A stretch of DNA of 48,302 nt from Escherichia phage vB_EcoD_Opt-719. A model generated the notes under the pieces. It saw only the letters and a program-made list of their open reading frames with translations. It did not search any database and had not been told where the DNA came from. Within the stretch, counting starts at the first letter, position 1. Each line of letters begins with the position of its first letter. The position numbers and the translations under genes are program-made. The DNA is taken from the sequence record OL539451.1; one strand, 5' to 3'. This document shows, piece after piece, positions 2,739 through 45,535 of this stretch.

Positions 2739-4007
2739 ATGGTAAAAGCAGACAGCTACGCAAACATCTTTCTTAACGGGAGTGATGGTAGCGAGATTTA
2801 CGGAAGGTTTGGCGGCCTTGGCTTAACAGCTCCAGCGCAGCTTGAGCAGCTTTACGTCAGTAGCGCACTGGTTCGTCGAATTATTGATATCGTGCCAGAG
2901 GTTGCACTTGGCGCTGGCTTTAACATTGAGGGTATCGACGATGAAGGTGCTTTCTGGTCGCGCTGGGATGATTTAGACCTTTCAGATAGTGTAATCGACG
3001 CACTGGCGTGGGCAAGATTATACGGTGGAGCTGCTGTAGTGGCAATTGTCAAGGATGGCAGGGCGCTAACTAGCCAGGTTAGGGAGGGAGCTGAACTTGA
3101 AACTATCCGCGTCTACGACCGACAGCAAATTAAGGTTCAGACTCGAGAGGAGAATCCACGTAACGCGCGATTTGGAAAGCCAGTTACCTATCGCATTACG
3201 CCAAATGGTTCGGCCACATTCTACGACGTGCATTACACTCGCTGCCACATCATCGATGGCGAAAGGGTTCCGAACAACCTACGCCGCAACAACGATGGTT
3301 GGGGCGCAAGCGTGCTAACTGGTGACTTAATCGACGCGATTGACGACTATCAGAACTGTGAGAGACTGGCTACTCAGTTACTTCGTCGAAAGCAACAGGC
3401 TGTGTGGAAAGCGAAAGGTTTGGCTGATTTATGCGATGATTCTGATGGATTTGGTGCAGCTCGCTTACGCCTGGCGCAGGTTGATAATAACAGCGGCGTT
3501 GGTCAGGCTATTGGTATTGATGCAGAGAGTGAAGAATATGACGTTCTTAACTCTGACATTGGTGGTATTGATGCATTCTTGAGCCAGAAGTTCGACAGAA
3601 TCGTTGCCCTGAGCGGCATCCATGAAATCATTCTCAAGGCCAAGAATACTGGAGGTGTATCAGCTAGCCAAAACACAGCCCTTGAGACTTTCTATGGTTA
3701 TGTTGACCGCAAGCGCAAGTCAGACCTGCTTCCTTTACTTGGTTTCCTGATTCAATTTATTGTCACTCAGGACGAATGGTCAGTTGAATTTAATCCACTA
3801 TCTCAAGTTAGCGATAAAGATAAATCTGAGATTCTAGAGAAGAACGTTAACTCAGTTTCAGCTCTTGTTGCTGGTGGCGTGATGAATACTGATGAAGCCC
3901 GTGATACACTACGAGCTATTGCGCCAGAGGTTAAGCTGCAAGATGGTGATATTGAGCAAACCGCTCAGGGGAAAACAGTCGAGGAGGTAGTGATTAATGA
4001 AGAGTAA
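2739..4007 (+). CDS. putative portal protein
   Basis: 422-aa ORF directly after terminase region, acidic C-terminus; portal call by position and size, family not verified. Confidence 0.55.
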   Translation: MVKADSYANIFLNGSDGSEIYGRFGGLGLTAPAQLEQLYVSSALVRRIIDIVPEVALGAGFNIEGIDDEGAFWSRWDDLDLSDSVIDALAWARLYGGAAVVAIVKDGRALTSQVREGAELETIRVYDRQQIKVQTREENPRNARFGKPVTYRITPNGSATFYDVHYTRCHIIDGERVPNNLRRNNDGWGASVLTGDLIDAIDDYQNCERLATQLLRRKQQAVWKAKGLADLCDDSDGFGAARLRLAQVDNNSGVGQAIGIDAESEEYDVLNSDIGGIDAFLSQKFDRIVALSGIHEIILKAKNTGGVSASQNTALETFYGYVDRKRKSDLLPLLGFLIQFIVTQDEWSVEFNPLSQVSDKDKSEILEKNVNSVSALVAGGVMNTDEARDTLRAIAPEVKLQDGDIEQTAQGKTVEEVVINEE

Positions 4008-5106
4008 AATGCGTTATGACAGCGCTAAAGTAAAAGCCCGTTTCGATGAGAACGGGTTTCTAGTGGACACTCCAGTGGTTGCTCGTGTTGGTGTTCAAAC
4101 ATACTACATGCCAGATGGCTCAGAGCGCCGAGAGTTCCGACCAGCATCAGAGGTGTTTAAATCCGATTCCCTGCAAAGCTATCAGGGCAAGCCGCTTACG
4201 CTTGGTCATGTAGTTGTTAATTCAGATAACGCCAAGGATGTTGTAGTTGGAGCAGTATCTGGTGCAGCTATGCGTCAGGATTCTACAGTTGTCGTTCCTC
4301 TAACAGTTTACGATAAGCAGGCAATAGAAAAGGCTAAGTCTGGCGTTGCTGGTGAGCTATCGGTTGGCTATAACACTGTTGATATTGAGTCTCCTGGCTG
4401 GGGTAGTAACGAAACGGGTGAGTATAAGCTTGATGGAGAGTACGCAAGCCAGGATGATATCCCTGCTGATTGGGTACGCTTTGATGCCCTGCAAACAAAC
4501 ATCGTTGTGAACCACATTGCTCTGGTATATAAAGGCCGCGCGCAAGTAGCTAAACTGAATCTGGACGCGGAACAGGAAAACCCGTATACTGATACCGTTC
4601 AATCAAATAAAGAGGATAAATTGATGATTAAGATTAAACTGGATGGCGAGCAGGAGTTCGAAATCGCCCCGGAAGTTGCTAAGCACATCGAAGCTGTTAA
4701 AGCTGATGCAGAACAGGCAAAAGCAAAAGCTGACACCCTTGAAGCTGAGCGTGACGCACTGAAAGCTAAAGTTGATGGCATTCCTGCTGAAATTGAATCT
4801 GCCGTAGCGAAAGCTAAAGCTGATGCTGACGAACTGGCCGCTCTGGTTGCTACCGCTGCAGAAGCTGGCGTTAAAGCTGATGGTATGGATGCTAAAGCAA
4901 TCAAAGTTGCTTACGTTAAAGAAGTATCCGGCCTTGACGTTGCAGAGAAATCTGACGCATACATCGATGCGGCCTTTGATATCGCTAAAGATAGTGATAA
5001 AATGGCTGAAGTCCGCAAAGCAGTTGTTGCTGCGGATAAATCTGACGCTGCCGACGCGCCTAAGAAATTAGACCCGCGCGCTCGCCTCGCTAAATTGAAA
5101 AAATAA
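3997..5106 (+). CDS. putative head maturation protease/scaffolding protein
   Basis: 369 aa; globular N-terminal domain then long Ala/Lys/Glu/Asp-rich coiled-coil-like C-terminus; GAGGAGG RBS; between portal and capsid genes. Confidence 0.45.
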   Translation: MKSKMRYDSAKVKARFDENGFLVDTPVVARVGVQTYYMPDGSERREFRPASEVFKSDSLQSYQGKPLTLGHVVVNSDNAKDVVVGAVSGAAMRQDSTVVVPLTVYDKQAIEKAKSGVAGELSVGYNTVDIESPGWGSNETGEYKLDGEYASQDDIPADWVRFDALQTNIVVNHIALVYKGRAQVAKLNLDAEQENPYTDTVQSNKEDKLMIKIKLDGEQEFEIAPEVAKHIEAVKADAEQAKAKADTLEAERDALKAKVDGIPAEIESAVAKAKADADELAALVATAAEAGVKADGMDAKAIKVAYVKEVSGLDVAEKSDAYIDAAFDIAKDSDKMAEVRKAVVAADKSDAADAPKKLDPRARLAKLKK

Positions 5107-5649: not shown

Positions 5650-5678
5650 TAGTTTCACTTTAAATCGGAGGAATGAAA

Positions 5679-6965
5679 ATGGCTAGCTTCTTGGAATTGG
5701 TAAGAGATAACATTGATAAGGGTTTAGCGACAATGCAGCCCGTTCAGTTATCAACTGAGTTTACTGCAATTAAAGAGATTAGGGTAGCAACATCAATCAC
5801 CACGCCACAAACAATATCAAGGAGTGATGAAACAAAGCTAATGTATACAACTTACGGGCTTGCTAACGTAGCTGGTGGTTCATACACAGGACAATCGCCA
5901 AACGGAGTCCAGATGAAGGTTGAGTTTATGACTGACTCAACTTTGTTCGAAATCAAAACCATCGGCTCAATCGGCACTTACTCAATTTTTATTGACGGCA
6001 AACTGGTAAATGCTGATGCATTCGCTACGCCAAATGGAGAGGCGGTGAGCTGGATGCAAGTTAAAGCTAATGACGGAGTTATCAGCGGGAAACTTCGACA
6101 CGTTGAAATCTACGGCATCAACTCAGCATTCGGAGCCTTCGTGTTTGGTGCTGGCGACACGGTTAGTCGTGAAATCTCAATCAAGCGCCCGCTTATTTAT
6201 CAGATGGGTGATAGTTATACTTATGGAACTGGTGCTGGATTCAGGACTCAAGCTTACGGCTCATCTCCTGCCGTAAATGACTTCTATGCATTCACCAGGT
6301 CTCTTGGTTTTGATGGTATTGCTGAAGGAATTGGTGGATCAGGATGGAACTCAGCTGCCGGTCAGTATCCAATGTCTCGCGTGCAAACAAGGCTTGCAAA
6401 GCTAAATCGCAAGCCGTCAGTTATCTCCTGGGCGCTTGGATATAATGATGCCGCTGCCATCCTGACTGGAACAAATAGCCAAAAGCTACTAGTTTCGATG
6501 GGTGAGTGTCTCGCTGAGACTAGGAAGGTTTATAGTGACGTTCCAATCATCCAGATTAGCAGCGCAACGCCGAAGGGAATTACCACTGGAATTCAGAAGG
6601 TAATTGATTTGGTTAATGGTTTTTGTTCTGATAACGACATTCCAGTAATTAACATAAGTAGCTATGTTACTAATGCTAACTCGGCAATTTATACAGGAAC
6701 AGACAACGTTCACCCGGGAACTCTTGGCCATGAGTTTAGGGGAATGGCAATGGCTCGCGAGGTTCTGCTTGCAGCCTCGGGTCAGAAATCACTAACAGTC
6801 CCAGTTACGCCGCGTGCATTTAACGTGGTAGCAAGGCTGACTAAAAGTTTTGGAGTTACAATCTTCTCTGGTGTAGTAAATGCTATTGATGAGAATGATG
6901 TTGCCGGACAGCTATACTTGCAGACTGGTGCTCGAGTGGAAATTCTCTCAGTATCTCGCGCCTAA
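5679..6965 (+). CDS. SGNH/GDSL-family hydrolase domain protein
   Basis: ordered GDSL blocks in C-terminal half: GDSYTYG, GYND, DNVHPGTLGH; ~170-aa non-catalytic N-domain; start set to ATG 5679 (GGAGGA RBS spacing); track start 5673. Confidence 0.65.
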   Translation: MASFLELVRDNIDKGLATMQPVQLSTEFTAIKEIRVATSITTPQTISRSDETKLMYTTYGLANVAGGSYTGQSPNGVQMKVEFMTDSTLFEIKTIGSIGTYSIFIDGKLVNADAFATPNGEAVSWMQVKANDGVISGKLRHVEIYGINSAFGAFVFGAGDTVSREISIKRPLIYQMGDSYTYGTGAGFRTQAYGSSPAVNDFYAFTRSLGFDGIAEGIGGSGWNSAAGQYPMSRVQTRLAKLNRKPSVISWALGYNDAAAILTGTNSQKLLVSMGECLAETRKVYSDVPIIQISSATPKGITTGIQKVIDLVNGFCSDNDIPVINISSYVTNANSAIYTGTDNVHPGTLGHEFRGMAMAREVLLAASGQKSLTVPVTPRAFNVVARLTKSFGVTIFSGVVNAIDENDVAGQLYLQTGARVEILSVSRA

Positions 6966-8598: not shown

Positions 8599-8626
8599 TT
8601 GTCCCAATCGAAATCTCGTGTATAAT
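8599..8626 (+). promoter_or_regulatory. sigma70-like promoter (-35 TTGTCC, -10 TATAAT)
   Basis: perfect TATAAT at 8621-8626 preceded by TG, 16-bp spacer to TTGTCC; ~40 bp upstream of capsid gene start. Confidence 0.45.
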
Positions 8627-8664
8627 TGACACGTAAACTCATAAACAAAAGGATGCATCTTAAT

Positions 8665-9612
8665 ATGACTATCAAACTTGACGCTTTCGAGCAAGAAAAG
8701 ATTACTAACCACCTGCGCGCTATGGGTGTTGATAAGGCTGATGCGGCTGGTATCTGGACTGTTAAGCAGCTCACCGCAAGCCTGAATAAAGCTTACGAAA
8801 CCGAGTACGACCAGAACTCCGTAGTAAATCTGTTCCCTGTAAGTAATGAAATCCCTGGCTACGCTAAATATTTTGAGTATCCGGTATTTGATGGCGTAGG
8901 TATTGCTCAGATCGTAGCTGATTACACTGATGACCTGCCGCTGGTTGATGCCTTGGCAACTGAACGTCAGGGTAAAGTTTTCCGCTTCGGTAACGCTTTC
9001 CTGATTTCCATTGATGAAATTAAAGTTGGTCAAGCTACCGGTCAGTCTCTGTCTACTCGCAAGCAGTCTCTTGCTTTCGAAGCTCACGACAAGCTTCTTG
9101 ATAAACTGGTGTGGTCCGGCTCTACTGCTCACGGCATCCCTAGCGTTTTCGACTACCCGAACATCAACAACGTTGTTAGCGCTGGCTCATGGTCTCAGCC
9201 AACTACTGCGGTAAGTGATATTACAAGTCTCTTGGATATTATCGAGACTTCAACCAATGGTCAGCACCGTGCGACTCACCTGCTTCTGCCTACTACCGCT
9301 CGTCGTATCATGCAGAACCTGGTACCTGGCACTTCTGTTAGCTACGGTGAATTCTTCCGTCAGAACAATAGCGGCGTAACAGTTGAGTTCGTTCAGTACC
9401 TGAATGATTACAATGGTTCTGGCACCTCTGCAGCTATCGCTTATGAGAAAGACCCTAACAACATGGCAATCGAGATTCCGGAAGCGACTAACGCACTGCC
9501 GGCTCAGCCGCGCGACTTGCACTTCCGTGTTCCGGTAACTTCTAAAGCAACTGGCTTGATCGTGTATCGTCCTTTGACCATGGCTGTAATGAAAGGCATC
9601 ACCTTCGCGTAA
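8665..9612 (+). CDS. putative major capsid protein
   Basis: ~316 aa from ATG 8665 (track start TTG 8626); own promoter and strong terminator; position in head module; family not verified. Confidence 0.6.
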   Translation: MTIKLDAFEQEKITNHLRAMGVDKADAAGIWTVKQLTASLNKAYETEYDQNSVVNLFPVSNEIPGYAKYFEYPVFDGVGIAQIVADYTDDLPLVDALATERQGKVFRFGNAFLISIDEIKVGQATGQSLSTRKQSLAFEAHDKLLDKLVWSGSTAHGIPSVFDYPNINNVVSAGSWSQPTTAVSDITSLLDIIETSTNGQHRATHLLLPTTARRIMQNLVPGTSVSYGEFFRQNNSGVTVEFVQYLNDYNGSGTSAAIAYEKDPNNMAIEIPEATNALPAQPRDLHFRVPVTSKATGLIVYRPLTMAVMKGITFA

Positions 9613-31180: not shown

Positions 31181-31663
31181 TTACTCTTTAGCTTTTCGTG
31201 CTGCTTCATTAGCTGCTTTAATTTTACGCCAAGAGCGACACTCTGGTTTGGTAGCTAACTCAGCATCAGTAACCACGCGCAGCATGTGACGCTTCTTGCA
31301 GCGCAGAGTAAGTGGCTTGCCGTTACCATCAAATTGAAGGTCTGGACGGCAGAATGTAGCGCGGAACCCTTCGCCAGTTCGCTTGTATCGATTGTGAGCA
31401 AGCTGGGCGCCACGTGCCGACATCATGCCGCGATTAAACCACTCCTCAACAGCCTGTCGAGTAACCTTTAATTGCTTCGCCATATTAGCCTTGCTGCCGT
31501 AGAAGTCTAAAACAATCTCAAGCCTCGCCCTTAAACCCGCTCTTACTTCATCCTTTAACACATAGTAACCTGACGGTCGTTTGCGAGGTTTTTTGTCTTC
31601 TGTTCGTATTGTTCCGTTATTACCGTTAAGGGTACGCTTATCAATTTCACACACTTTTATCAC
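31181..31663 (-). CDS. putative HTH DNA-binding protein
   Basis: 160 aa; helix-turn-helix-like segment SKANMAKQLKVTRQAVEEWFNRG; basic N- and C-termini; divergent from helicase gene. Confidence 0.4.
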   Translation of the reverse strand: MIKVCEIDKRTLNGNNGTIRTEDKKPRKRPSGYYVLKDEVRAGLRARLEIVLDFYGSKANMAKQLKVTRQAVEEWFNRGMMSARGAQLAHNRYKRTGEGFRATFCRPDLQFDGNGKPLTLRCKKRHMLRVVTDAELATKPECRSWRKIKAANEAARKAKE

Positions 31664-35141: not shown

Positions 35142-35355
35142 GGTCTGGAAGCACTGCGGAGAGGCTGGACTACAGGATGATATCAAGATAATAAGTAAGT
35201 ACTTTGACATTGATGATATCTCTGTAGTTTATGATGGAAAATTCAGCTATATGAACCAGCGCCCTCGAAAGTATGTAAGAGTTCCGGCAACCCCAAGCCT
35301 TGCGATGTATCGCGAGGAAGGTAAGAAGATATTTAAGAAAGGTGCTAAGAAATGA
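35116..35355 (+). CDS. hypothetical protein (80 aa)
   Basis: ATG 35116 with AGGTG RBS; same frame as track ORF 35011..35355 whose TTG start lacks RBS. Confidence 0.4.
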   Translation: MILKTGRAEVWKHCGEAGLQDDIKIISKYFDIDDISVVYDGKFSYMNQRPRKYVRVPATPSLAMYREEGKKIFKKGAKK

Positions 35356-35609
35356 ATTTACCTGGACTTGATTTTGATGAGAGTAAGTATCCAGTTGTCT
35401 TTTTTGGTGAGAAGCCTTACCGGAAGATCCCTTTTGCTGATTGGATTCCACCAGACTATCTTGATGTGCTGGTTCAGATTGAAGTTGGTAAGGCTGAACT
35501 CATGTATTACTCACCAGGCTGCAACATGATGATGCCTAGTGAATACTCTCCGGCAATAGCCGCGCTTGAAACTGAGTTTCTTGATTACTGGCTAAAAGAA
35601 GTTAAATAG
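35352..35609 (+). CDS. hypothetical protein (85 aa)
   Basis: ATG overlaps upstream stop (ATGA); stop TAG lies inside promoter-cassette motif. Confidence 0.45.
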   Translation: MNLPGLDFDESKYPVVFFGEKPYRKIPFADWIPPDYLDVLVQIEVGKAELMYYSPGCNMMMPSEYSPAIAALETEFLDYWLKEVK

Positions 35610-35623
35610 CACTTTTTGTTAAA
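35604..35623 (+). promoter_or_regulatory. promoter-cassette motif copy
   Basis: AAATAGCACTTTTTGTTAAA; GGATGG, CGTATAGT and CATCGAAACGAGAGAAG leader downstream. Confidence 0.5.
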
Positions 35624-35677
35624 ACGCACCGCCAAGGATGGCGTATAGTGTGTTCATCGAAACGAGAGAAGCTTTAG

Positions 35678-35746
35678 ATGAAAACATTACTACCGTTGAT
35701 GGCTATGCCATTAACCTTTATAATCATGTACTTCATAATCTGCTAA
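35678..35746 (+). CDS. hypothetical leader micro-ORF (22 aa, hydrophobic)
   Basis: occupies the usual first-cistron position of the promoter cassette (GAGAGAAG RBS); MKTLLPLMAMPLTFIIMYFIIC; precedes the HTH-phosphoesterase gene. Confidence 0.3.
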   Translation: MKTLLPLMAMPLTFIIMYFIIC

Positions 35747-35760
35747 CAGGAAATTAAATA

Positions 35761-36894
35761 ATGGCTATTGCTAAAATTACGAACGAACAACTTAAAGAAG
35801 AACTAGCTAACGGTATGACTAACAAATCAATCGCAGAGAAGTACGGTATGAATATTCGTAACGTAGAACTGCGTCGCAGCAAGCTGGCTAAGGCTGGGGA
35901 TGGTCACGGTCGCGATGTTAGTAACCTAATTCCTCAAGGCTACATGGTTAAGGGTGTATCTAGCCTCGTTGATAATGATGGAAATGTAAAGTTGCAGTGG
36001 GTTAAGTCCTCCATTGATGCAGAAAAGCTTGAAGAGATTATGAATCAAGCGCGAGAGGCATTTTCTAGTGAGTTACCAAAAGAAAAAGCAGTGAAGTCTG
36101 AAGGTCTGGATTTTGATGAAGATACTTTAGCCATGTATCCAGTGTTTGACCTTCATATTGGCGCGATGGCTCATAAGCATGAGTGTGGAGAAAACTACGA
36201 CACAGCAACAGCTGAGAAAGTAATGAATGACTACTTTGATTACGCTGTTCAGAAAGCTCCAAATTCAAAGAATGCGGTACTAGTTCTTGGAGGAGATTTA
36301 CTTCACTATGATTCTCTAGAGGCTAAAACTCCAGCTAGTGGTCACATCCTTGATAGTGACAGTCGCTACGCTAAAATTGTTTATGTTTGCATACGTTCGG
36401 TTCGTCGTGCAATTAGAAACATGCTTAGCAAACATGAAAATGTAGAGGTTAAAGTTATATCCGGGAATCATGATGAAAGTGGTATGGTTTGGTTGCGAGC
36501 TGCACTTGCGGCATTTTATGAGGAAGAACCACGCGTAAGTATTGATGTTAGCCCCGCGGCAATGATGGTAACTAAGTTTGGTTCTACAATGCTCGGGTTC
36601 ACTCACGGCCATCAAATGCGGAAAGCTGATACTCGCCTTACGGTTATGGCTACTGACTGGCGACGTGACTTTGGCTTAAGTGATTATGTATACACCCACT
36701 CAGGCCACTGGCATTCACAGAAGATTACAGAAACAAATCTTGGTATTGATGAGGTTCATGGTCAGCTTGGTTCACCAGATGCATATAGTGCGAATGGTGG
36801 ATGGCGCTCACAAAGGCAGGCTGCGGTAATCATATATCATAAAGAGTTTGGTGAAGTTGGTCGCTTTATCTGTCGCCCTGAAATGTTTAAATAA
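35761..36894 (+). CDS. calcineurin-like metallophosphoesterase (Mre11/SbcD-like motifs) with N-terminal HTH
   Basis: ordered motifs DLHIG, GGDLLH, GNHDE, THGH, GHWH; N-terminal HTH-like NKSIAEKYGMNIRNVELRRSKL. Confidence 0.6.
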   Translation: MAIAKITNEQLKEELANGMTNKSIAEKYGMNIRNVELRRSKLAKAGDGHGRDVSNLIPQGYMVKGVSSLVDNDGNVKLQWVKSSIDAEKLEEIMNQAREAFSSELPKEKAVKSEGLDFDEDTLAMYPVFDLHIGAMAHKHECGENYDTATAEKVMNDYFDYAVQKAPNSKNAVLVLGGDLLHYDSLEAKTPASGHILDSDSRYAKIVYVCIRSVRRAIRNMLSKHENVEVKVISGNHDESGMVWLRAALAAFYEEEPRVSIDVSPAAMMVTKFGSTMLGFTHGHQMRKADTRLTVMATDWRRDFGLSDYVYTHSGHWHSQKITETNLGIDEVHGQLGSPDAYSANGGWRSQRQAAVIIYHKEFGEVGRFICRPEMFK

Positions 36895-36911
36895 TAGCAC
36901 TTTTTGCTAAA
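36893..36911 (+). promoter_or_regulatory. promoter-cassette motif copy with adjacent hairpin
   Basis: AATAGCACTTTTTGCTAAA immediately followed by hairpin GCCCTCCGGGGC and TTTT. Confidence 0.45.
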
Positions 36912-36960
36912 GCCCTCCGGGGCTTTTGAAAGGTGTCAATTACAGACTGAGGAATCAAAA

Positions 36961-44247: not shown

Positions 44248-44708
44248 TGATATGCGTCTATGTTGCCATATTCTTATTGGCAAACCTCCTGGTAGCCTCA
44301 TTTGGTCCAGCGGTAACTCCATTTAACGCACTTTTTCTTATAGCGGCAGACATGGTATTAAGGGACAGGATTCAGTTTGAGAGCGGTGCGGCATGGTCAA
44401 TACTAGCATGCTTCCTTGCCGGATTTGCGACTGTATTAATAGCGCCAGGTTCAGAGATGATTGCTTTAGCATCTGGCCTATCATGCTTACTTGCTGGATC
44501 AGCTTCAGCGATTGCATTCAAATTAAAGTCTGGTGGATTTTTTCAGAAGGCGTTGCCAGCAAACGTAATTGCTGCTGCGGTAGATTCAATTGCATTCCCA
44601 TTAATTGCTTTCGGGTCTATAATGCCAGGCATAACAGCAGCCCAGTTTGCCGCTAAAACTATTGGCGCATCAATCATACTATTAATCATAAGGAAATTAT
44701 CTAAGTGA
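44232..44708 (+). CDS. polytopic inner-membrane protein, tentatively YhhQ/Vut-like (DUF165) transporter
   Basis: 158 aa, ~5 predicted TM helices, GAGGAGG RBS; family guess from size, topology and conserved-looking Asp/Arg residues (AADMVLRDR, AVDSIAFPLIAF); unverified. Confidence 0.4.
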   Translation: MRKVLMICVYVAIFLLANLLVASFGPAVTPFNALFLIAADMVLRDRIQFESGAAWSILACFLAGFATVLIAPGSEMIALASGLSCLLAGSASAIAFKLKSGGFFQKALPANVIAAAVDSIAFPLIAFGSIMPGITAAQFAAKTIGASIILLIIRKLSK

Positions 44709-45535
44709 CAATTCACTTCCATGGCTCCCCTATAACGGGGGGCAAGGGCGATGCACTTGCTCGGACCGCGTATACAAATGGCGGTGCTTTCGTGTCATTC
44801 GCCCACCCGCAGCAGATAGAATTGGCGTTTAAGGTAGCGAATGCAGTATGCATAGATAATGGTGCGTTCTCTAAGAAGAATAGCGGCAAAGCTACTGACT
44901 GGCATAAATTCTATAATGACTTTTTACCCAGATTTATCGACAGAGAAAAGTTACGATTCTTTGTTATACCTGATGATATCAGCGGGTGCGACAAAGAGAA
45001 CGACAGATTAATAAGCGAACTTCCATTACACCTAAAGCACAAAGGAGCTCCAGTCTGGCATATGCATGAGAGCTTAGACAGGCTAGTCCACCTTGCCAAC
45101 GAGTGGGAATACATGTGTATAGGCTCGTCAGGCGAGTACTACTCTATCCGTTCAGAGAAATGGAAGCGGCGCATGAATGATGCCTTTAACGCTCTAATTC
45201 AGAGGGGCTACTCAGCAAAAATTCACGGCCTCAGAATGCTGGATGGTCGAGTTCTTGGCAACTACCCACTGGATCAGGCTGACTCAACAAACCTGGCTAT
45301 TAATGCGCCTAAGTGGATATGCAAATATATAGATATGACCATTGAGGCGTGCCGAGCTCAGACTCACAGAGACGCATGGATTTCAACCTCAGATCCGAAG
45401 TTTGCACTTGAGCAATTAATCGCAGACGGCGGCACAAGGGAGCAGATGCTGGCACAGAGATGCGCGATACTCAGGAATTGCATAGAAGCAGTAAGGCCAC
45501 CATCAAGGGATTCATGGAATAGCACGAATTGCTAA
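44705..45535 (+). CDS. hypothetical enzyme, tentatively TGT/DpdA-like transglycosylase
   Basis: 276 aa; GTG start overlapping upstream TGA (GTGA); motif VCIDNGAFS loosely resembles TGT catalytic DSGGFQ; call rests mainly on gene context; unverified. Confidence 0.3.
   Translation: MTIHFHGSPITGGKGDALARTAYTNGGAFVSFAHPQQIELAFKVANAVCIDNGAFSKKNSGKATDWHKFYNDFLPRFIDREKLRFFVIPDDISGCDKENDRLISELPLHLKHKGAPVWHMHESLDRLVHLANEWEYMCIGSSGEYYSIRSEKWKRRMNDAFNALIQRGYSAKIHGLRMLDGRVLGNYPLDQADSTNLAINAPKWICKYIDMTIEACRAQTHRDAWISTSDPKFALEQLIADGGTREQMLAQRCAILRNCIEAVRPPSRDSWNSTNC

Follow-up and report, generated by a model that had tools for sequence, protein, structure and literature searches.

The window considered here is the complete 48,302-nucleotide (nt) genome of Escherichia phage vB_EcoD_Opt-719 (record OL539451.1), a T1-like siphovirus of the Drexlerviridae (Rogunavirinae), and our subject is the locus at positions 35,678 to 36,894, where a gene for a metallophosphoesterase fused to an N-terminal helix-turn-helix (HTH) is preceded by a minute open reading frame (ORF) for a hydrophobic peptide, hereafter the micro-ORF. 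Both had been proposed in an earlier sequence-only reading of this DNA, and we confirm their coordinates: the phosphoesterase gene starts with ATG and encodes 377 amino acids (aa), and the micro-ORF encodes 22 aa. The features of the locus are as follows (coordinates are those of the window, followed by the strand).

35352..35609 (+): conserved 85-aa gene, phrog_4596, function unknown, upstream of the micro-ORF
35607..35649 (+): repeated intergenic cassette, possibly a promoter or the target of a regulator
35678..35746 (+): micro-ORF, encoding a hydrophobic peptide of 22 aa with a single helix, MKTLLPLMAMPLTFIIMYFIIC, kept in 71/80 Drexlerviridae loci
35748..35752 (+): AGGAA, the Shine-Dalgarno (SD) sequence for the phosphoesterase, with 8 nt between it and the ATG
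35761..36894 (+): HTH-metallophosphoesterase, 377 aa, PHROG 704 'DNA repair exonuclease'
36896..36927 (+): degenerate cassette copy directly after the phosphoesterase stop, with the hairpin AGCCC-TCCG-GGGCT and then TTTT, terminator-like

Over 1.7 kb this locus is 100% identical to those of phages Phleasolo, Opt-79 and Sadiya, and ~91% identical to that of Rogue1. The start of the phosphoesterase gene is well defined, nearly all close homologues beginning at the aligned position, and the gene is annotated as a "putative metallophosphoesterase" in Phleasolo, and RefSeq calls it a "DNA repair exonuclease" for both Rogue1 and T1 (gene ST16). Residues 4-376 of its product match positions 2-389 of the 390-position PHROG 704 profile (E 7.5e-156), whose label is based on homology alone. 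The family is large: an exhaustive search recovered 4661 clusters (50% identity) at E <= 1e-3, most of those listed being 370-420 aa long, and by tblastn 2016 of 50,697 phage records (~4%) carry a homologue, among them Drexlerviridae, Jerseyvirus, Dhillonvirus, Jedunavirus, and phages of Vibrio, Rhodobacter, Roseobacter and Campylobacter. Within the Drexlerviridae it is reported to be a core gene and part of a persistent module in 508/522 genomes (PMC13164509). The existence of the gene is consequently not new, given that it is already catalogued and named by homology. Our literature search found no experimental study of the PHROG 704 family, and a search of BFVD matched solely uncharacterised members of the same family.

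The active site is intact throughout this diversity. The five-motif metallophosphoesterase series (DxH, GDxx[DH], GNH[DE], H, GHxH) is present in the window protein and its homologues, and the nine predicted metal ligands (D130, H132, D179, H182, N236, H237, H282, H316 and H318) are invariant in all three alignments used for motif conservation, comprising 17 close homologues, 21 homologues at 32-63% identity and 47 homologues at 31-84% identity. Loss of metal ligands on alignment, which the sequence-only reading had named as one outcome that would overturn it, was not seen at any depth down to ~31% identity. Domains and motifs are placed as follows.

35782..35892 (+): N-terminal three-helix HTH, residues 8-44, of sigma-70 region 4/LuxR/Fis type
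35932..36069 (+): conserved beta-hairpin and helix module, residues 58-103; P58, G60, G74 and W80 invariant, K82 and D86 nearly so
36112..36891 (+): calcineurin-like metallophosphoesterase domain, residues 118-377
36148..36156 (+): motif I, D130-L-H132 (within D130-L-H132-I-G), ligands invariant
36289..36306 (+): motif II, G177-G-D179-L-L-H182, GDxxH as in Mre11/SbcD
36328..36369 (+): loop between motifs II and III that is conserved and particular to this family, T190-P-x-S-G-H195-x-L-D198-x-D200-x-R202-Y
36463..36477 (+): motif III, G235-N-H-D-E, from the alignments
36604..36612 (+): motif IV, H282-G-H284, H282 invariant
36703..36714 (+): motif V, G315-H316-W-H318, from the alignments

An AlphaFold2 (AF2) model reached a predicted local distance difference test (pLDDT) score of 70 from close homologues only and of 83.6 from the 47-sequence alignment. 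It lays out an HTH (8-44), a beta-hairpin (61-85), a helix (87-103) and a metallophosphoesterase core running from ~118 to the chain end at 377; as the chain ends with the core fold, no capping domain is present. Confidence is low in the region of the conserved loop (pLDDT < 50 for residues 185-197). The three helices of the HTH span residues 8-16, 21-27 and 32-44, and blocks within residues 1-50 have pLDDT values of 71-88. By itself the window protein gives only a weak GerE match (E 0.041); the HTH is supported family-wide, since at E <= 0.01 the 47 members include 13 matches to HTH_50, 9 to HTH_1 and 8 to HTH_8 (best E 3.4e-9), with further N-terminal matches to HTH_23, HTH_28 and others. 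Moreover, LuxR/FixJ-type chains match the N-terminus best when PDB sequences are searched by profile, and some family members are named "winged helix-turn-helix domain-containing protein" by NCBI. The earlier description of an HTH-fused calcineurin-type metallophosphoesterase is upheld by the invariant motifs, the AF2 model and the family-wide HTH matches. The segment following the HTH (P58, G60, G74, W80, K82, D86) is better conserved than the HTH, and this beta-hairpin and helix module may be a second DNA-contact or docking element.

Comparison of the model with solved structures ranks Mre11-type nucleases at the top: T. maritima Mre11 scores 14.5 and S. aureus SbcD 14.0, followed by MJ0936 (13.8), the PolD subunit DP1 (13.7), the B-subunit of Pol delta (13.2), other Mre11 proteins and E. 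coli SbcD (11.7-12.6), LpxH and YfcE (12.3), Rv0805 (11.6) and PP5 (8.6). As modelled, the fold, together with motif II (GDxxH), is nearest to the Mre11/SbcD nucleases, by a small margin over other metallophosphoesterases. Sequence comparison is less generous: hhalign against E. coli SbcD returns a probability of 0.5% (E 0.12), although motifs I-III nevertheless align; the profile search of PDB sequences finds Mre11/SbcD at E 0.24-1.7; a single-sequence search of the same set yields noise only; and an NCBIfam scan of the window protein gave nothing above cut-off, with no match to SbcD/Mre11 or phosphatase families. Among 47 homologues, Pfam Metallophos is matched in 23 and Metallophos_2 in 11 (E <= 0.01). 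The likeness to Mre11/SbcD that had been proposed therefore holds for the active site and for the nearest solved folds, and fails for sequence and for the capping domain. We do not place the phosphoesterase in the Mre11/SbcD family, as a significant sequence relationship, a capping domain and a Rad50 partner were all lacking, and it is best described as a distinct HTH-fused branch of metallophosphoesterase nucleases.

That the enzyme lacks a Rad50/SbcC partner, as the sequence-only reading had supposed, is borne out by the genome. No SMC, AAA_23 or SbcC domain was found in any of the 10 scanned among the 12 other window ORFs of at least 300 aa; these ten are terminase, portal and tail proteins, a RecE-like PD-(D/E)XK nuclease, a primase, an SF2 helicase and a DUF3987 helicase. 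The two that the scan left out (3997..5106, 369 aa, and 8626..9612, 328 aa) are in our judgement too short for a Rad50/SbcC-type coiled-coil ATPase, and the gene order of Rogue1 suggests that they are head genes. Furthermore, no Rad50/SbcC-type gene is annotated in Rogue1 or Phleasolo, and no recurrent ATPase or fixed gene partner appears in the contexts of nine distant homologues.

The neighbourhood is one of replication and recombination genes. Upstream of the phosphoesterase gene lie a helicase, a VRR-NUC gene and several small genes; downstream, the terminator-like hairpin is followed by the lysis cassette ~0.8 kb away, and terminators are annotated at the equivalent post-gene site in T1 and KpV52. 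Replication and recombination genes in the window and its relatives include helicase, VRR-NUC, primase, RecE-like nuclease, Erf and SSB, and the phosphoesterase gene closes the replication and recombination block of T1-like phages. Distant homologues (given here by locus numbers, L) offer comparable settings: L089 has a RecE-like gene and AAA_24 directly upstream, L087 has DnaB and a RecA-dependent nuclease among its neighbours, and in lambdoid-type prophages the homologue ends a replication/nin-like block, adjoining holin and lysozyme in L087/L088 and lying ~1.9 kb before them in L097.

HNH_3 endonuclease genes stand directly downstream of the phosphoesterase gene in five phage or prophage contexts (L083, T1 ST15, 4029..4511; L094, Jerseyvirus, 4171..4671; L086, 7131..7601; L099, 6735..7025; L100, 6213..6698), and none is present at the window locus. 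We considered them as a functional partner and rejected this, homing endonucleases that settled beside a highly conserved gene being most likely the better explanation.

The two-metal site is invariant, the fold ranks with nucleases, the N-terminus is of a DNA-binding type and the neighbouring genes serve replication and recombination; on this combined evidence the phosphoesterase is probably a stand-alone DNA-cutting enzyme distantly like Mre11, its substrate being suggested by fold and context. In the mechanism we propose, the HTH, probably with the beta-hairpin module, would hold the enzyme on DNA and so replace the grip that the Rad50 clamp and capping domain give Mre11, and the Mre11-type site (DxH, GDxxH, GNHD, H, GHxH) would then cleave or trim the ends of DNA, needing no Rad50-type ATPase. 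The likely job would be to process ends for recombination-dependent replication or for the formation of concatemers, or to break down host DNA; something tied to the lysis block is a third candidate role.

The micro-ORF is a gene in its own right by several measures. Of the 80 Drexlerviridae loci that we surveyed, with enzymes sharing 56-98% identity with that of the window, 70 have a hydrophobic ORF of 22-29 aa that begins with ATG and stops 1-17 nt short of the enzyme gene; hand inspection added L073, so that the 22-aa ORF noticed from the sequence alone proves to be conserved in 71/80. Comparable hydrophobic ORFs arise in the same sequences at a background rate of ~0.1 per kb per strand, and chance would therefore hardly place one within 20 nt of the same point in so many diverged lineages. 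The peptides themselves have diverged strongly, with identities of 14-82% to that of the window, and share the consensus M-x-x-L-x-x-L-x-L-P-x-x-I-A-x-x-I-M-Y-x-I-I-M; residue 2 or 3 is basic in nearly every lineage, and ~18-20 consecutive residues carry no charge. Selection on the peptide is purifying: among pairs with greater divergence (pS, the proportion of synonymous differences, > 0.25) the ratio of nonsynonymous to synonymous differences (pN/pS) is ~0.3-0.45, as in pairs with pN 0.26 versus pS 0.60 and pN 0.10 versus pS 0.35. We infer a separate conserved gene for a single-helix peptide that would insert into the membrane.

Its translation signals differ between lineages. In T1- and RTP-like phages the micro-ORF ATG overlaps the stop of the upstream gene (ATGA), other inspected lineages have GAGGA or GGGAG before it at proper spacing, and in the window the start signal is a weak GAGAGAAG supplied by the cassette. 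At its other end, 14 nt separate the window micro-ORF from the enzyme gene, its stop TAA occupies 35744..35746 and the SD begins 1 nt past that stop; in most lineages the stop lies in or beside the enzyme SD (TAAGGA). Given this adjacency the two may be translationally coupled, an arrangement that is ordinary for packed phage operons. Two loci are natural knock-outs, with decayed copies beside an intact enzyme gene: L061 (about 3913..3987) has a stop at codon 3 (MR* then ISVILLPPVIAWVIMYAVVMN), and in L009 (about 3900..3987) the start was lost at a cassette insertion, leaving the C-terminal part ..LPFAFGIMYELIMNN.

Annotation has largely passed this gene by. It carries no annotation in T1, Rogue1 or phiEB49, the peptide has no PHROG match, and an exact look-up of six micro-ORF peptides in a collection of 15 billion proteins found one, as a "hypothetical protein" of Shigella phage ESh4. 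The records of Phleasolo and AHP24 annotate a 39-aa ORF in a different frame (35638..35757, +). We weighed it as the true upstream gene and regard it as probably spurious, since it starts inside the cassette, which phiEB49-, T1- and RTP-like phages lack at this site. Stop codons interrupt that frame in 4 of 18 lineages, and the encoded sequence shows no conservation; the sole PHROG match of this ORF, phrog_20703 (258 positions), is also hit by residues 1-195 of the enzyme and seems to be a chimera, assembled from genes that were frameshifted or mis-called.

Small hydrophobic ORFs occur upstream of the phosphoesterase gene in other phage groups also, with one present in 45/87 loci of Dhillonvirus and Guernseyvirinae taken together. 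Dhillonvirus (L093/L101-L112) has an unrelated ORF of 26-32 aa, 61 nt upstream, and Guernseyvirinae (L094, L118-L173) a two-helix 'superinfection immunity'-type protein of 59-68 aa, 37-68 nt upstream. Such recurrence may reflect functional pairing, or a favoured insertion slot heading a transcription unit.

The cassette in front of the window micro-ORF belongs to a set of 13-16 copies in the window, against 1.6 expected, which start at these positions.

2253, 31669, 34065, 35607, 36896, 37160, 43868, 45521, 46525 (+): cassette starts
23462, 41097, 41533, 42210 (-): cassette starts

The cassette is built from an inverted-repeat core TAGCA-N5-TGCTA, a short GC hairpin and TATAGT, then ATCGAAACGA, an SD and an ATG; the 35607 copy has the core TAGCA-N5-TGTTA, the GC hairpin CGCCAAGGATGGCG (35630..35643) and TATAGT. 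The sequence-only reading had placed the micro-ORF on the ribosome-binding site of a promoter cassette. Its position is as described, the micro-ORF ATG lying at +71 where other copies have their first downstream ATG, which in most is the first gene's start codon, at +60 to +84. As a standard sigma-70 promoter, however, the cassette was rejected, its TTGYTA and TATAGT elements being 22 nt apart and a consensus scan giving no call. The core is present in 85 of 100 loci, which is essentially all Drexlerviridae loci including T1, and was absent from the non-Drexlerviridae phages among them that carry the enzyme; a regulator shared across the family, such as the 'transcriptional regulator' encoded at 31181..31663 (-), may act at the cassette. 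T1-, RTP- and phiEB49-like phages have the micro-ORF with no cassette in front, and consequently the micro-ORF is older than the cassette at this site and no part of it, a copy of which would have been inserted ahead of the micro-ORF/enzyme pair in this phage lineage. We found no attenuator or RNA structure that would sequester the ribosome-binding site: the window leader has z = -0.97, and across 14 lineages z ranges from -1.8 to +2.6 with the enzyme SD mostly unpaired.

The reading that we favour is that the enzyme is a competent two-metal DNA phosphodiesterase acting alone and that the micro-ORF is a separate membrane-peptide gene, and we put its probability at about 0.5, DNA as substrate and the biological role being its more conjectural parts. 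Several observations weigh against it. Similarity to Mre11/SbcD is not significant in hhalign or PDB searches, Pfam Metallophos falls just below its cut-off on the window protein (20.6 bits against 21.5), and MJ0936, a phosphodiesterase whose natural substrate is unknown, scores 13.8 in the same fold comparison; the case for DNA as substrate draws on fold ranking and context. The gene shows a strong synteny with the lysis cassette that a replication role does not explain, and in temperate phages its context varies, with the gene at the prophage edge in some. Lastly, the micro-ORF is truly absent from 7/80 loci and decayed in 2/80, and is hence not indispensable.

For the micro-ORF, the principal alternative is the one proposed by the sequence-only reading, a cis-acting leader peptide without function of its own whose translation or stalling sets expression of the enzyme. 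It would fit the placement in cis immediately before the enzyme gene (14 nt here, 1-17 nt in relatives), the stops in or beside the downstream SD in most lineages, and the occupation of the cassette's usual first-gene start site. Yet the character and length of the peptide are conserved, with pN/pS < 1, across very diverged DNA, the RNA structure is neither significant nor conserved and leaves the SD accessible, the enzyme gene has a good SD of its own and is intact in the 9/80 loci that lost the micro-ORF, and the micro-ORF is equally present without the promoter cassette, as in T1- and RTP-like phages; we therefore regard leader-peptide control as unlikely. A different possibility is that membrane peptide and HTH-phosphoesterase form a functional pair, for example a membrane-tethered or peptide-gated nuclease at the site of DNA entry or replication, or a timing device linked to the adjacent lysis genes. 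This idea is prompted by the recurrence of unrelated small hydrophobic ORFs directly upstream in Drexlerviridae, Dhillonvirus and Guernseyvirinae, and we hold it only tentatively, as an outside chance.

For the enzyme, the lysis-gene adjacency that a nuclease leaves unexplained keeps alive, at low probability, the proposal that the protein is mainly a DNA-binding regulator of lysis/late genes or of the cassettes, with the enzyme domain as sensor or effector. The persistent module of 508/522 Drexlerviridae is reported to comprise exonuclease, holin, endolysin and spanin (PMC13164509). In the L087/L088 lambdoid-type prophages the homologue directly precedes holin and lysozyme, at the usual site of Q, with no Q-family domain recorded nearby, and L084 and L097 resemble this arrangement. 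The HTH is of a sigma-70 region 4/LuxR/Fis type, and the protein might conceivably recognise the TAGCA-N5-TGCTA cassettes found throughout the Drexlerviridae. Even so, catalytic ligands that are all invariant point to an enzyme and not a scaffold, carriers of the gene outside the Drexlerviridae lack the cassette motif, the gene lies away from lysis genes in Jerseyvirus, KpV52 and several prophages, and in T1 and KpV52 a terminator separates it from the genes downstream; as the protein's main function, regulation is in our view improbable. We are somewhat more sceptical of an anti-defence hydrolase of nucleotide second messengers (CBASS, Pycsar, Thoeris or type III CRISPR), a role against host signalling that the sequence-only reading had also entertained. 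Conservation in many lytic phages would suit it, but a small-molecule hydrolase would not need a conserved DNA-binding HTH, core-gene status across a phage family is unusual for counter-defence, and cyclic-nucleotide phosphodiesterase folds ranked below nucleases. Moreover, neither the window protein nor three of four distant homologues matched PADLOC-DB (the remaining one had a weak N-terminal CARF-model match, E 0.007), the neighbours are not signalling-related, and our literature search yielded no link between the PHROG 704 family and signalling defences; the proposal finds no support here. An end-healing enzyme, removing 2',3'-cyclic phosphates or 3'-phosphates from RNA or DNA alongside polynucleotide kinase-type enzymes, is likewise conceivable, the healing domain of bacterial Pnkp being a calcineurin-type phosphoesterase. 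In Drexlerviridae without the SH3 gene, polynucleotide kinase and dNMP kinase are the commonest genes just downstream (PMC13164509), as also in GZ9. The window phage, however, has no polynucleotide kinase beside the gene, and the HTH suggests double-stranded DNA. Motif II is moreover GDxxH as in Mre11/SbcD, whereas lambda-phosphatase-like healing domains carry GDxVDRG, and we find this function doubtful. Least probable by far is a protein Ser/Thr phosphatase like lambda NinI, which belongs to the same superfamily and in lambdoid phages is encoded in the nin region just before Q, comparable to the homologues before lysis genes in L087/L097; motif II has no DRG signature, and no Pfam or NCBIfam phosphatase family was matched.

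The phosphoesterase family is among the most persistent of T1-like phage genes, and if the DNA phosphodiesterase reading is true, an HTH-tethered Mre11-type site without Rad50 would be a simple new route for phage end processing or host-DNA destruction. The enzyme might then be the host-DNA breakdown function of T1, which has long been known. Literature searches on T1 host-DNA degradation and gene 2.5, on a Tunavirus metallophosphoesterase and on Drexlerviridae essentiality screens returned nothing usable. What is genuinely new is the conserved, essentially unannotated micro-gene, a clear case of a conserved ~22-aa protein missed by gene callers, in whose place some GenBank records carry the spurious overlapping 39-aa ORF. 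These findings overturn no current understanding; their worth lies in better annotation and in a defined experimental target.

Two further genes of the window, outside the locus, deserve mention. In the head/tail region, 5673..6965 (+) is a 430-aa ORF with a GDSL/SGNH lipase-esterase domain (E 5.6e-11), its Rogue1 counterpart being annotated as a tail fibre protein. At about 44360..44836 (+) lies a 'putative VUT family protein', according to the Phleasolo annotation (queuosine-precursor transporter family); a Vut_1 gene is also present in the Salmonella phage locus L086, and a transporter gene is unusual for a lytic phage.

Among known systems, lambda-phosphatase and PPP phosphatases are set apart by a GDxVDRG motif II and a PPP-type fold that are not found in the phage enzyme, and the nuclease MPE PdeM (TIGR04123), against which the window protein scores 15.3 bits for a cut-off of 150, differs in its ~200 aa, its lack of an HTH and its LigD/Lhr operon association. 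Eukaryotic polymerase B-subunits have lost their metal ligands; by comparison with these and with PolD DP1, the phage family keeps all of its ligands and the phage genome has no polymerase partner. Mre11/SbcD (T. maritima Mre11 3qg5, S. aureus SbcD 7dog, E. coli SbcD) resembles the phage enzyme at the level of fold and active site only. The phage enzyme lacks the capping domain, the Rad50-binding helices and a Rad50/SbcC gene in the genome, and possesses instead the N-terminal HTH with its beta-hairpin module and the TPxSGHxLDxDxRY loop. The micro-ORF product is similar in size and hydrophobic build to type I toxins (Ibs) and small inner-membrane proteins, with no sequence family match. A further parallel is gp48 of the cluster A mycobacteriophage A10ZJ24, like the PHROG 704 enzyme a partner-less phage metallophosphoesterase, although no HTH fusion is described for it and its host and phage group are different. 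As gp48 is a stand-alone protein with the five motifs that is reported to be expressed early, to have phosphodiesterase activity and to damage host genomic DNA (PMC12287305), the idea of a phage nuclease of this fold working without a partner has a precedent.

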